Notes: a model not told the origin generated them from the letters alone. Counted from the first letter of the stretch, positions 30,547 through 35,842 are shown. The stretch is 64,000 bases of DNA from Candidatus Omnitrophota bacterium (GCA_020632555.1 JACKFI010000001.1:133152-197151), one strand, 5' to 3'. Numbers and translations are program-made.

Positions 30547-31560
30547 TCATATTGAAACGTGGCATTGCCCATTGCCAAGATCAACAAAATTAATTTTAAC
30601 ATCCATGAACTTCTCAATAATCTCGGCATTGGTAAGGCTGTGCAGCGTCAGGGCCGTAGTTTTAAATTCTCCACCTTTGGCCAAAGCAAACGGGATCAAA
30701 AGCTGATCAGCCAAATACGTCCCCACCGGAGCATCGATTTGTAAATATTTCTTTACTTGTTCAATGGCTTCATGCGCTACTGCTTCCGCGCTTTTACGCA
30801 ATTCTCCGAAACCCACAAACATTTCCCTGATATTTTCACTATCAACCTCAACCGTAAAAATATTTCCCGGACCTTGAGAATCCATGGCTTGAAAAATCTC
30901 ACTTTGATCATCTTCCAGAGAAAAATGTTTTTTAGCGACCGCGATTTCTCTGACAGCAACATTGCCAGGGATTTGGGCAAAGAGTGATCTTGCCTTTATG
31001 CCTTTAAGTTTGCCGCGCTCTAACAAAAATATGGGTTTTAATTTCTTTATAGGCACAATTTTAGCTTCGATCTTTCCGCCGCCGGCCGGGTAAAAACCGT
31101 GGCGATGCAAAGTCACTTCTAAATCCACACCCATTTGTTTGAGAATCGGCGCAAAAACTATTTTTAAAAAATCCACCGGGGGTGCGAAAGGATTATGCGT
31201 TCCTCCTTCGATCACAATTATGGATGGTGAGTCCGCGATCATCAAAGCCGGTAAAATGGTTTGCAAAACAAGAGTCGCGCTACCCGCCGTCCCAACTGAA
31301 AAATGGTATTCCCCTGCGGTGACTTCTCCCGGATAGAAAGTCAGCTTTTGCGAGCCGATAACATTCCCATCGACCTTTGCATCTCCAATCTTCGTAGCTG
31401 CTTCGACAGCCGTTAAATGCTGGCGTAAAAGCCCCGGCTTACTACGCTTAGCGCGGATATTCTCAATCGTAAACGGCTCGCCCGTTACTAAGGACAACCC
31501 GAGAGCTGTCCTTAGTATTTGGCCCCCGCCTTCACCGATTGAACCGTCGATTTTAATCAT
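30547..31560 (-). CDS. rtcA: RNA 3'-terminal phosphate cyclase
   Basis: 337 aa; RtcA N-terminus (IDGSIGEGGGQILRTALGLSLVTGEPFTIENIRAKRSKPGL); 4-bp overlap with the upstream SPFH gene. Confidence 0.85.
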   Translation of the reverse strand: MIKIDGSIGEGGGQILRTALGLSLVTGEPFTIENIRAKRSKPGLLRQHLTAVEAATKIGDAKVDGNVIGSQKLTFYPGEVTAGEYHFSVGTAGSATLVLQTILPALMIADSPSIIVIEGGTHNPFAPPVDFLKIVFAPILKQMGVDLEVTLHRHGFYPAGGGKIEAKIVPIKKLKPIFLLERGKLKGIKARSLFAQIPGNVAVREIAVAKKHFSLEDDQSEIFQAMDSQGPGNIFTVEVDSENIREMFVGFGELRKSAEAVAHEAIEQVKKYLQIDAPVGTYLADQLLIPFALAKGGEFKTTALTLHSLTNAEIIEKFMDVKINFVDLGNGQCHVSI

Positions 31561-32306
31561 TTGACCTCTTTGGTTCTCACCGGAACGACTTGACCCGATA
31601 CTCCTAAGACAATCGTACTTCCCGGTGATTGTAAAGCTCGCAATTGCAATAACGCAGGATTGTCTTCCAACACTTTAGAAACATTGGCCAAATTGCGCAA
31701 AGACGCGGTTTCTCCGCGGGCACGTTCCAATGCCGCCAACCCTTCTTTTTGCGCCTCAACAACCTTAGCAAAGATTTTCTTTAATTCACCCGGAAACATA
31801 ACGTCCTTAACGCCGATGAGCGTAATTTTTAAACCGATTTCCTTCGCTTTGGCAACCGTCGCTTCCATCAACTTTTGATTAATCGTTGCTCGCTGTGCCA
31901 AAACCTCATCGATCGCTAAAGAGCCAATGATGTCACGAACTGCCAATTGTACCACCGCGTATAAAGCCTCGGTGTAACTAGCGATCTTATTAACGGCGAT
32001 GTTGGCATCTTCGATCTCATATTGCGCCGTAATGCTGACCTTTAAGGACACATTGTCCGAACTTAAGACTTCCTGCCCCGGGATCGTGATGACTCGAGGA
32101 CGAACATCGATCTTAACGATGATCGTATTCTGAGAAAACTTAAAATAACGACCCGGTTCCAAAATTCCGACAAATTTTCCCTTGCGATATTTTAAACCCT
32201 TCTCATATTCAAGAATAGTGACAAAATATTTTGCACTAAAAACCGCAATGACGACCCAACCGATAAAGCCGAGCACCGCCATGCTTACTAATGTTGATAA
32301 TGTCAT
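31557..32306 (-). CDS. SPFH/band-7 (stomatin/prohibitin-like) membrane protein
   Basis: 249 aa; N-terminal TM helix then SPFH domain; AGGAGA SD 6 nt upstream of the ATG; lies between rtcB and rtcA. Confidence 0.8.
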   Translation of the reverse strand: MTLSTLVSMAVLGFIGWVVIAVFSAKYFVTILEYEKGLKYRKGKFVGILEPGRYFKFSQNTIIVKIDVRPRVITIPGQEVLSSDNVSLKVSITAQYEIEDANIAVNKIASYTEALYAVVQLAVRDIIGSLAIDEVLAQRATINQKLMEATVAKAKEIGLKITLIGVKDVMFPGELKKIFAKVVEAQKEGLAALERARGETASLRNLANVSKVLEDNPALLQLRALQSPGSTIVLGVSGQVVPVRTKEVK

Positions 32307-32330
32307 TTCTTTCTCCTTTTGTTTTTAAAA

Positions 32331-32575
32331 GTTCTGTCTTAAAAAAATTGTAGAATCGCAGTGGAGGTTGTTGACCTGCAAGACGGCTTTTCTACGAGCA
32401 ACTTTCTTAAGACAGAACGTGGGGATTTGAACCCCTCGGATTACTCCTTGACCAGGGCGAGCGTTTATCTGCAAAATGATATGGCCGATGCCATGTCATC
32501 GCACTGGATTCGCTCGCATATTTTTTTATCCCAATTTTTGCTAAAGGATTTTGCTTTTGGTAAATTGGGATTACG
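32331..32575 (-). ncRNA. Putative structured tRNA-like/Y-RNA-like RNA inside the rtc operon
   Basis: Minus-strand transcript carries a perfect T-arm mimic GGGG-UUCAAAU-CCCC (32421-32435). Long-range 10-bp pairing GUUCUGUCUU/AAGACAGAAC (32409-32418 with 32331-32340). 7-bp stem GCGAGCG/CGCUCGC (32457-32463 with 32511-32517). 9-bp stem AUCCCAAUU/AAUUGGGAU (32528-32536 with 32563-32571). No credible same-strand ORF. Confidence 0.35.
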
Positions 32576-32602
32576 CAAATTTTTTCTATCGAAAATCTGC
32601 CT

Positions 32603-34120: not shown

Positions 34121-34145
34121 TTGTTTTTCCCTTATATTGCCCCTT

Positions 34146-34173
34146 TCCTTTATCGTTGCTTAAAGCATACCCT
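34146..34173 (-). promoter_or_regulatory. Candidate sigma54 (-24/-12) promoter for the rtcB operon
   Basis: Minus strand reads TGGTATGCTTTAAGCAA with GG-N10-GC spacing about 25-50 bp upstream of the rtcB ATG. A sigma54 promoter is expected because RtcR is a sigma54 enhancer-binding protein; the elements are degenerate. Confidence 0.3.
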
Positions 34174-34243
34174 ATCCAAAGCCAAATGTCAAATTTATTT
34201 TTATTTTCTTGTATAAATGTTTATCCTGTGATATATTTATACC

Positions 34244-35842
34244 ATGAATACAAAAATTGCTATTGGGCTACTTGGGACAACCCTCGATCAAGGGAAAGAT
34301 GAAAATCGCTGGAACAAGTGGCGTCCGACCATCTCCCTTTTTCAGCACGAAGACCTCTTGATCCATCGTTTTGACTTGCTATACGAAAAAAAATTTCAAG
34401 ATCTTGCCGAGCAAGTTATTTCTGACATCAAATCCATCTCCCCTGAAACCAGAGTTGTGCCCCACATTATTGAAGTGAAAGACGCGTGGGATTTTGAGAA
34501 TATGTACAGCGTCCTTTTTGACTTTGCCCGCAATTATCCTTTTAATATAGAGAAAGAAGAATATCTCATCCACATCACCACCGGATCGCACGTAGCGCAA
34601 ATTTGTGAATTTCTTTTAACTGAAAGCCGATACTTCCCAGCTAAACTCATCCAGACCTCCCCTTCCAAAACCGAAGGCTTTAAAGGCGAATACCGCATCA
34701 TTGATCTTGACCTTTCTAAGTACGACAACATCGTCAAGCGATTCCGTAAAGAACAAAGAGAAAATTTATCATTTCTTAAATCCGGGATAGCGACTCGCAA
34801 TAGTAAATATAATCGGCTCATTGAACAAATCGAACGCGCGACGATCAACTCTAATGCCCCGCTTCTTCTCACCGGCCCGACCGGTGCCGGAAAATCACAT
34901 CTTGCCCGACAAATTTTTGAACTCAAAAAGATTCACAACCAAATCAAAGGCCAATTTATCGAAGTCAACTGCGCGACTCTGCGCGGAGAAATGTCGGCCT
35001 CCACCCTTTTTGGGCATGTCAAAGGAGCATTTAACTGCGCCATCAAAGACCGAATGGGATTATTACGCGAAGCCAATGAAGGGGTTTTATTTCTCGACGA
35101 GATTGGAGAATTAGGGATCGATGAGCAAGCCATGCTTCTTAAAGCATTGGAAGAACAAAAATTCTTGCCCATCGGCAGCGACGAGGAAGTTGAAAGTAAA
35201 TTTCAGTTAATTGCCGGGACGAATTTAGACCTTGGCATTGAAGTTGATAAAGGCAATTTTCGCACCGACCTCTACTCCCGAATCAATCTTTGGACATTCT
35301 CATTGCCTTCTCTTAAGGACCGTCCTGAAGATATCGATGCCAACATTGAATTTGAATTAGAAAAGTTTTCACAAACACACAATATCAACGCCACCATCAA
35401 TAAAGAAGCCAAAGATGCCTATTTGAAATTTGCGACATCAGAGAAAGCATTATGGAAAGCGAACTTCCGTGACTTGAATGCCTCCATCATTCGCATGACC
35501 ACATTAGCCGACGGCGGGAGAATCAATATTGAACTTGTGCAGGAAGAAATTGACCGGTTAAATAAACTTTGGAAGAGAAGCGAAGATACTCAAGAAGCGG
35601 AGATACTCGAACGTTTACTAACTCAAGAACAACTGCAAAAGCTAGACCGGATTGAAAAAATCCAATTGATTGAAGTTATAAAGATTTGCCGCGAATCACG
35701 CAACCTGTCTGAAGCCGGCCGCATTTTATACAATGCTTCCCGCACACTCAAATCAAGCACCAATGACGCCGATCGACTTAAAAAACTTCTCGCCCGCCAC
35801 GATCTATCCTGGGACCAAATTAAAAACGCTTCCGTACTATGA
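34244..35842 (+). CDS. rtcR: Sigma54-dependent transcriptional regulator RtcR (CARF-AAA+-HTH)
   Basis: 532 aa; N-terminal CARF-like domain; AAA+ sigma54-interaction domain (LLTGPTGAGKSHLA, GAFNCA, FLDEIGEL); C-terminal Fis-type HTH; divergent from rtcB. Confidence 0.85.
   Translation: MNTKIAIGLLGTTLDQGKDENRWNKWRPTISLFQHEDLLIHRFDLLYEKKFQDLAEQVISDIKSISPETRVVPHIIEVKDAWDFENMYSVLFDFARNYPFNIEKEEYLIHITTGSHVAQICEFLLTESRYFPAKLIQTSPSKTEGFKGEYRIIDLDLSKYDNIVKRFRKEQRENLSFLKSGIATRNSKYNRLIEQIERATINSNAPLLLTGPTGAGKSHLARQIFELKKIHNQIKGQFIEVNCATLRGEMSASTLFGHVKGAFNCAIKDRMGLLREANEGVLFLDEIGELGIDEQAMLLKALEEQKFLPIGSDEEVESKFQLIAGTNLDLGIEVDKGNFRTDLYSRINLWTFSLPSLKDRPEDIDANIEFELEKFSQTHNINATINKEAKDAYLKFATSEKALWKANFRDLNASIIRMTTLADGGRINIELVQEEIDRLNKLWKRSEDTQEAEILERLLTQEQLQKLDRIEKIQLIEVIKICRESRNLSEAGRILYNASRTLKSSTNDADRLKKLLARHDLSWDQIKNASVL

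Follow-up and report, generated by a model that had tools for sequence, protein, structure and literature searches.

The rtc RNA-repair locus analyzed here lies in a 64,000-nt stretch of DNA from a Candidatus Omnitrophota bacterium (GCA_020632555.1 JACKFI010000001.1:133152-197151), which we refer to as the window and in which positions are counted from the first letter. We found that the gap between rtcB and the downstream gene for an SPFH/Band-7 membrane protein holds a real structured RNA, and that the unit conserved across genomes is this RNA plus the SPFH gene, not the SPFH gene alone. The explanation that we favor, and consider probable, is that the locus is an Rtc operon of the "RtcB + Band-7 + noncoding RNA (ncRNA)" type that took in a self-contained RNA-SPFH module, with a role as a ribonucleoprotein (RNP) or as protein and operator proposed for the SPFH-RNA pair.

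Listing of open reading frames (ORFs) together with Pfam and NCBIfam searches gave the order rtcR on the plus strand, divergent rtcB on the minus strand, a 296-nt non-coding gap, and then the SPFH gene and rtcA, both on the minus strand:

34244..35842, plus strand: rtcR, CARF-AAA+-HTH activator (Pfam RtcR PF06956, E=2e-80; Sigma54_activat PF00158, E=4e-47)
32603..34120, minus strand: rtcB, 505-aa RNA 3'-phosphate ligase (Pfam RtcB PF01139, E=4e-102)
32328..32517, minus strand: SPFH-associated structured RNA of ~190 nt, the 3' part of the 296-nt gap (covariance-model match, E=2e-41)
31557..32306, minus strand: SPFH/Band-7 "slipin", stomatin-type, 249 aa (Pfam Band_7 PF01145, E=2e-30)
30547..31560, minus strand: rtcA, RNA 3'-terminal phosphate cyclase (Pfam RTC PF01137, E=3e-81)

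The rtcR product scored 755 bits against the NCBIfam equivalog RNA_repair_RtcR (NF038308, cutoff 650) and the rtcA product 439 bits against NF003246 (cutoff 352), while the PF01139 match in rtcB was full length, covering profile positions 1-425 of 426. The SPFH gene carries the ribosome-binding site AAGGAG 8 nt 5' of its ATG, and its stop codon overlaps the rtcA start codon in an ATGA (AAATGATT). Reading of the protein sequence revealed a hydrophobic N-terminal anchor (residues ~5-24) followed by a basic stretch, and because the anchor precedes the basic stretch, the SPFH domain is probably cytoplasmic. The nearest solved chains were stomatin (E=2e-26), PH stomatin and QmcA, and the solved stomatin entries are 16-mer assemblies with 16 chains per entry. 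A "slipin family protein" encoded in a metagenome-assembled genome of Candidatus Omnitrophica matched it at 100% identity, and PADLOC returned no anti-phage defense match for the SPFH protein. These results bear out much of a preliminary description of this DNA, which had placed an RtcR of CARF-AAA+-HTH type divergent from rtcB, an SPFH gene between rtcB and rtcA that overlaps rtcA by ATGA, and an ncRNA between rtcB and the SPFH gene. It had also described the module as lacking rsr, in agreement with the absence of a TROVE domain from the 27 window ORFs scanned (the rtc genes, the SPFH gene, a 141-aa ORF 3' of rtcA, the nearest flanks and 10 further long ORFs) and of any Rfam Y-RNA-like match from the window or from the rtcB-SPFH gap.

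The evidence for the RNA came from its folding energy and from covariation. The minimum free energy of the 296-nt gap lay well below that of shuffled sequence (z = -6.6). An alignment of 14 sequences supported 54 base pairs, 29 of them with compensatory changes, and was used to build a covariance model. An independent MAFFT alignment of 41 diverse RNAs supported 44 pairs, 40 of which were compensated; 91.4% of its cells were paired, compared with 42-53% when the partners were slid, the covariation score was 0.61 against at most 0.19, and none of 500 shuffles reached the observed values. The consensus structure has three domains and no cloverleaf, with no D-arm after the last hairpin (P3), and its elements in the window, all on the minus strand, are:

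32511-32517 paired with 32457-32463: P1, which encloses P2
32470-32503: P2 hairpin, with an invariant AUC in its apical loop
between the P1/P2 domain and the T-arm: a small variable junction hairpin
32421-32435: T-arm, GGGGUUCAAAUCCCC, which fits the tRNA T-loop consensus
32331-32418: long P3 hairpin, with the inner conserved stem UGCRGGU..ACCYCCRC

Searches for a known family, with cutoffs set by E-value as well as by gathering score, returned nothing beyond chance. Rfam 15 holds no family for this RNA: no match at E<=1 was obtained over 8 kb of the window, and at E<=10 over 321 nt only chance-level matches appeared. No Rfam match was found at the RNA position in 14 diverse loci either, a further locus (L010) likewise giving only chance matches. 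The Rfam tRNA-like models matched the T-arm hairpin only, at chance level. For the RNA of the window and the corresponding site in 80 of 80 related loci, ARAGORN detected no tRNA or transfer-messenger RNA (tmRNA), and neither that RNA nor its counterparts in 14 other loci were matched by the tRNA model RF00005. A known riboswitch, T-box or leader family was therefore rejected, as no curated Rfam 15 model matches, and so was a true tRNA or tmRNA, given the negative ARAGORN and RF00005 results and the lack of a cloverleaf. We also considered whether the conserved CCUCC acts as an anti-Shine-Dalgarno sequence and discarded this idea, because CCUCC covaries with its pairing partner (CCCCC with GUGGG in Acidobacteriota) and is therefore structural. 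Finally, a transcription attenuator was rejected, since a U-tract after P3 occurs only in low-GC relatives and is not general.

To follow the RNA beyond the window, we used 80 kept genome loci encoding relatives of the window SPFH protein. A blastn comparison of the gap with these loci showed that its 3' ~190 nt are conserved upstream of SPFH genes that have no Rtc neighbors, and the covariance model placed the RNA directly upstream of the SPFH gene, on the same strand, in 76 of the 80 loci, spanning at least 15 phyla. Among the remaining loci, two gave weak or partial covariance-model matches and one was masked at the RNA spot, namely L055, where positions 4709-4936 between an RtcB gene and the SPFH gene, the place where the RNA would lie, are a run of N. 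Carriers include Omnitrophota, Planctomycetota, Elusimicrobiota, Acidobacteriota, Nitrospirota, Chloroflexota, Actinobacteria and Armatimonadota, and further Verrucomicrobiota, Desulfobacterota, Gammaproteobacteria, Melainabacteria, Synergistia, Clostridia and others. The linkage also held when the search started from the RNA. Scanning metagenome contigs for the exact pattern of T-arm plus inner stem gave 120 loci; in the first batch the covariance model confirmed 26 RNAs, and 24 of these were followed by a same-strand SPFH ORF, one of the other two being cut by the contig end. The second batch showed the same linkage, bringing the RNA-first loci with a linked SPFH gene to ~40. Three pattern matches that contain RtcB (L097, L116 and L188) were rejected as false positives from giant tRNA arrays; each array has ~20-30 tRNA genes, and the embedded RtcB gene is 27% identical to that of the window.

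When flanking ORFs were clustered and the nearest ORFs in the 80 loci were tallied by Pfam family, no shared protein neighbor besides SPFH emerged, and NfeD was not among the top neighbor families. A phage origin of the module was rejected, because no relatives were found on viral contigs, and plasmid copies were rejected because plasmids hold only NfeD-type slipins that are ~30% identical.

The position of the RNA relative to the SPFH gene was nearly constant. Between its 3' end and the SPFH start codon there are 15-25 nt, and the Shine-Dalgarno sequence follows P3 at a distance of 2-10 nt. A strong promoter-like site was present in 18 stand-alone loci, and in 12 of these 3-8 nt separate the end of the -10 box from the 5' end of the RNA. 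With its start at or close to the predicted transcription start and its end so near the start codon, the RNA is predicted to be the 5' leader of the SPFH mRNA in stand-alone loci. In the actinobacterial loci L058 (3725-4890) and L066 (22-614), an array of tRNA genes ends 0-2 nt before the start of the RNA; the array comprises 12 tRNAs in L058 and at least 5 in L066, where it is cut by the contig start. In L057 (3432-4964) the RNA is preceded by four tRNA genes, with ~175 nt between the end of the last one and the RNA. This placement suggests that the RNA may be co-transcribed with the tRNAs and undergo tRNA-type end processing.

Such a layout raises the alternative that the RNA is purely a cis-acting 5' leader, which senses a cue other than SPFH (temperature, a metabolite, or a tRNA or a fragment of one) and thereby controls how well the SPFH mRNA is translated or how stable it is. 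The SPFH protein would then be a plain membrane scaffold that has no partner RNA, and its place in the rtc operon would reflect a side of the same response that deals with membrane stress. An RNA that is always 5', on the same strand, near the predicted start and 2-10 nt before the Shine-Dalgarno sequence across at least 15 phyla is arranged as a leader would be, and for an RNA that acts in trans one would expect the position to drift. In addition, T-loop motifs in T-boxes and other RNAs dock tRNA elbows. However, among the RNA leaders compared we found no conserved terminator and no helix hiding the Shine-Dalgarno sequence, no Rfam riboswitch or T-box model matched, and the RNAs placed 0-2 nt after the last array tRNA in L058 and L066 point to processing like that of a stable RNA. 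A sensing leader would also leave the recurrent capture of the module by RNA-repair operons unexplained, and on balance we regard it as unlikely.

We then examined how the module is tied to the Rtc genes, which adjoin it in 5 of 81 genome loci (the window and four others) in three arrangements. The first, rtcR / rtcB-RNA-SPFH-rtcA, is that of the window and of its close relatives L001 and L002, in both of which RlaP comes next. The second, rtcR / RNA-SPFH-rtcB-rtcA, occurs in L018. The third, in L055, consists of a 396-aa RtcB of a different type followed by SPFH. An SPFH gene beside rtcB is thus not unique to the window genome, a point on which the preliminary description had left its reading to depend. 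In L002 the rtcB stop lies at 4782 and the RNA starts at 4790, with 7 nt between them, which is too short for a separate promoter. We infer that the module between rtcB and rtcA of the window is co-transcribed with them, given the spacing, the way in which the SPFH and rtcA genes overlap in the ATGA, and the arrangement in the relatives; a promoter of its own is not evident. The proposal of the preliminary description that the SPFH gene is an integral operon member is accordingly supported at the sequence level by the overlap with rtcA, the 7-nt spacing in L002, the recurrence in three arrangements and a promoter ahead of the whole unit in L018, so that the gene appears to belong to the window rtc operon.

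It may be asked whether the RNA-SPFH module came to lie in the rtc operon by chance, with no functional tie to RNA repair. About 94% of the modules have no Rtc neighbor, their neighbors being unrelated and variable, and in most genomes the module stands alone; the region around the window locus is itself mosaic and island-like, containing a transposase, a tRNA gene and toxin-antitoxin genes. Against this, RtcB was the only specific recurrent neighbor of the module. If RtcB is present once in about one third of genomes, chance adjacency can be roughly estimated at ~2e-4 per locus, and we infer that 5 of 81 loci, from at least three independent events, is far above what this rough background would give. 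The association also arose in at least three independent arrangements with two types of RtcB, in addition to Pseudomonas aeruginosa as known from the literature, the SPFH gene is coupled to rtcA by the ATGA, and the L018 promoter, of sigma54 type, precedes the whole unit. A chance insertion is therefore improbable in our view, and both this explanation and the sensing leader are less well supported than the capture of a self-contained module.

The preliminary description had further proposed that a sigma54-like GG-N10-GC element upstream of rtcB drives the operon. The rtcR-rtcB spacer contains a single such element, GGTATGCTTTAAGC, at 34158-34171 on the minus strand. Across the window the GG-N10-GC motif occurred 360 times against 362 expected, which is the chance frequency, and the GC of GGTATGCTTTAAGC is lost in both L001 and L002; a better-looking TGG..TGC, TGGATAGGGTATGC, has N9 spacing instead of N10. 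What the spacer conserves instead is a sigma70-like promoter:

34164..34192, minus strand: TTGACA-17-TATGCT, 10 of 12 matches, in the rtcR-rtcB spacer

This site is kept in the window, L001 and L002. A sigma54 promoter in the spacer was rejected, as no -24/-12 element with the proper spacing is found there beyond the chance-level, non-conserved GG-N10-GC. The GAFTGA loop of RtcR (residues ~260-265) reads GAFNCA in the window, GAFNGA in L001 and L002, and GSFTGA in L018. The degenerate loop and the sigma70-like rtcB promoter region hint at sigma54-independent control in this clade. In L018, which has the second arrangement, RNA-SPFH-rtcB-rtcA is preceded by a textbook sigma54 promoter, TTGGCACGCTCTTTGCT, located ~50 nt before the RNA. 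L018 thus combines the two marks looked for in sigma54 control, a TGGCACGCTCTTTGC promoter and a GSFTGA loop.

The arrangement itself has precedents. The 2016 abstract of Burroughs and Aravind is said to describe "SPFH/Band-7 modules", paired with "a novel tRNA-like molecule", as cofactors that might provide scaffolding. In the passage that the 2018 preprint of Wang et al. (bioRxiv 10.1101/312249) devotes to this subject, RtcB is stated to adjoin, in certain bacteria, a Band-7 protein and a predicted ncRNA, "b7a-tRNA", with reference to Burroughs & Aravind 2016; the RNA is said there to "strongly resemble an authentic tRNA" and is considered possibly redundant in function with YrlA. The P. aeruginosa rtc operon includes PA4582 and PA4584 (PMC8619066), the SPFH protein PA14_60630/PaFlo8 is embedded in the rtc locus of this species (PMC13086221), and a 2025 preprint places an RlaP gene between its rtcB and rtcA (PMC12776372), which, judged from gene order, would be PA4584. 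PaFlo8 is not among the relatives in our set of 80 loci. Because the RtcB/Band-7/b7a-tRNA report and the P. aeruginosa rtc operon already describe this arrangement, the window locus is a further example, from Omnitrophota, of a described RtcB + Band-7 + ncRNA operon type, and the statement that it lies outside the described Rtc system does not hold. That the locus is an Rtc variant not described before, with a sigma54 promoter in the rtcR-rtcB spacer driving it, is a reading for which only the gene order as originally stated speaks; it is scarcely credible given these precedents, a GG-N10-GC at chance level that is not conserved, a conserved spacer element that is sigma70-like, and a degenerate GAFTGA loop.

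Under the explanation that we consider probable, the rtc operon would have captured a two-part module consisting of the T-arm RNA and an SPFH gene directly downstream that encodes a membrane-anchored protein of the stomatin type, whose cytoplasmic oligomer would bind the tRNA-elbow-like RNA. The RNA might then be retained as a cofactor in an RNP, providing a scaffold for RtcB, RtcA or damaged tRNA at the membrane or recruiting them there, by analogy with what is proposed for Ro60/Y RNA in rsr-yrlBA-rtcBA operons, or it might be an operator near the Shine-Dalgarno sequence by which SPFH limits its own translation. The two roles would be compatible. Placement of the RNA after tRNA arrays and capture of the module by repair operons favor a stable RNP.

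Several observations weigh against this explanation. Rtc genes stand beside the module in only 5 of 81 genome loci and in none of ~40 metagenome loci, many of whose contigs are short, and because so few modules adjoin Rtc genes, the main function of the module cannot depend on RtcB. So tight and constant a distance from the start codon is more in keeping with a leader that acts purely in cis than with a free cofactor. The RNA is tRNA-like in its T-arm only, ARAGORN and the Rfam tRNA and tRNA-like models fail to recognize it, and its likeness to b7a-tRNA is drawn from the description of Wang et al. According to the same passage of that preprint, b7a-tRNA had not been validated as of 2018 (bioRxiv 10.1101/312249), and deletion of paFlo8 gave no phenotype in the assays run (PMC13086221).

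We also put forward, tentatively and as a possibility short of probable, a broader interpretation of the same data. The RNA would be a widespread class, present in at least 15 phyla and so far lacking a proper description, that serves as the obligate leader of one stomatin clade and mimics a tRNA elbow; the SPFH cage would be an RNA-binding membrane assembly, with the leader as both its cofactor and its autoregulatory operator, and repair operons would have recruited the pair to deal with damaged tRNA at the membrane. On this interpretation the b7a-tRNA prediction possibly captures the RNA in part or not at all, and the SPFH cage possibly binds tRNA.

SPFH/stomatin proteins are usually seen as membrane scaffolds for proteins and lipids. 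If the proposed role is right, a stomatin clade tied to a tRNA-like RNA and recruited by repair operons would constitute a bacterial membrane RNP, which could fill the part that Ro60/Y RNA plays in other rtc operons. The main value of the present analysis lies in an RNA that is well defined and widespread, is linked to a stomatin clade and has no entry in Rfam; for this RNA we supply boundaries, a covariation-backed consensus, a covariance model, the leader position and operon variants, including one with a clean sigma54/RtcR promoter. PA4582 of P. aeruginosa offers a genetic system, provided that the RNA is present there.

Around these core elements, the window contains further features that touch the rtc locus:

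32518..32602, minus strand: lineage-specific 85-nt spacer with two stable hairpins, between rtcB and the RNA (fold)
30018..30443, minus strand: ORF141, a 141-aa ORF 3' of rtcA that is not a conserved operon member (ORF listing)
35938..35953, minus strand: near-consensus sigma54-type element TGGCACAAATCTGGCA, just past the rtcR 3' end and pointing through rtcR towards rtcB
29998..30013, minus strand: second copy of TGGCACAAATCTGGCA, 3' of ORF141 and ~80 nt upstream of a DUF6933 gene

The 85-nt spacer is common to the window and L001 and absent from L002, as judged from the differing extent of the blastn matches; a small repeat may have been inserted there, or the spacer may serve in processing or attenuation in this lineage. 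ORF141, which the preliminary description had listed after rtcA, is indeed present there. It is not conserved, and L001 and L002 carry RlaP (PF10127, E=9e-88) at this position. The ORF belongs to no family in Pfam, NCBIfam or PADLOC and has no relatives among the 80 SPFH loci, its sole match being to the C-terminal half of phrog_37823 (PHROG 37823, function unknown) at E=4e-9. Degraded RlaP was rejected as its origin, since there is no similarity between the two; it may be a truncated mobile-element gene that replaced the RlaP of L001 and L002.

The TGGCACAAATCTGGCA element has two matches on the minus strand against 0.18 expected by chance, and copies of this type lie at equivalent places in L001 (1250-1265 and 8859-8874) and L002 (1526-1541 and 7548-7563). 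A further copy of this type occurs in the window at ~25500-25515 on the minus strand, and several copies share a ~50-nt downstream leader, TTGACCATCACGCAACATATTGTTATTAAACAG, before unrelated genes (DUF6933, a PAS-LuxR regulator and DUF4143). The repeated elements could mark an RtcR/sigma54 regulon or the borders of cassettes.

The island-like, mosaic stretch that contains the rtc locus extends over window positions ~25500-38800. Its 5' part holds Fic-DUF4172 (25557-26690), AbiEii + AbiEi (26919-28452) and DUF6933/PDC-S63 (28569-29918), and its 3' part holds HEPN + MNT nucleotidyltransferase genes (35977-37015), a Mutator/IS256-type transposase (37347-38471) and a tRNA gene (38731-38804, minus strand). 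Toxin families whose targets are RNA or tRNA account for several of these genes, and a 24-nt direct repeat is found at 26890-26913 and 38564-38587. Farther away, at 45975-51943 on the minus strand, are three tandem ORFs of ~645-675 aa; the two of them that were scanned end in Peptidase_S74 (endosialidase chaperone), which is typical of tail-fiber or adhesin-like proteins.

The closest counterparts of the window locus are the RtcB/Band-7/b7a-tRNA systems. In both, an RtcB gene adjoins a Band-7 gene and a conserved ncRNA with tRNA features, and the presence of RlaP in the close relatives L001 and L002 is a further trait in common. The RNA described here, with ~190 nt in three domains, shares only its T-arm with tRNA, whereas the published account has b7a-tRNA "strongly resemble an authentic tRNA", and the RNA-SPFH pair is found mostly away from repair genes. 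In P. aeruginosa the order is rtcR / PA4582 (PaFlo8, SPFH) - rtcB - PA4584 - rtcA. The protein set RtcR, RtcB, SPFH, RtcA and RlaP is the same as in L001 and L002, and rtcR is divergent in both, whereas the SPFH gene comes first in P. aeruginosa, as in L018, and the window has no RlaP.

Compared with the Salmonella operon rsr-yrlBA-rtcBA, which encodes Ro60 with YrlA and YrlB, the window shares an RtcR-linked rtcBA, an extra scaffold-like protein and an ncRNA inside the operon, and its RNA resembles YrlA in having a T-arm followed by a closed "acceptor-like" hairpin. It differs in that no TROVE domain was found in the ORFs tested, no D-arm follows P3 and no Rfam Y-RNA match was obtained; moreover, the partner here is a membrane stomatin rather than Ro60, and the RNA is fixed 5' of the partner ORF. 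Stomatin/slipin-NfeD operons (such as QmcA-YbbJ and PH1511-PH1510) have in common with the module a stomatin-type SPFH domain with an N-terminal membrane anchor. In place of an NfeD partner, however, the module has the RNA in the partner position, and its neighbors in the window are rtcB and rtcA. A more distant parallel is the vault particle of eukaryotes, a soluble assembly that comprises MVP with an SPFH-like shoulder domain, vault RNA, and TEP1 with a TROVE domain. As an analogy only, the vault and the proposed SPFH-RNA assembly would both unite a large SPFH-fold structure with a small structured RNA.

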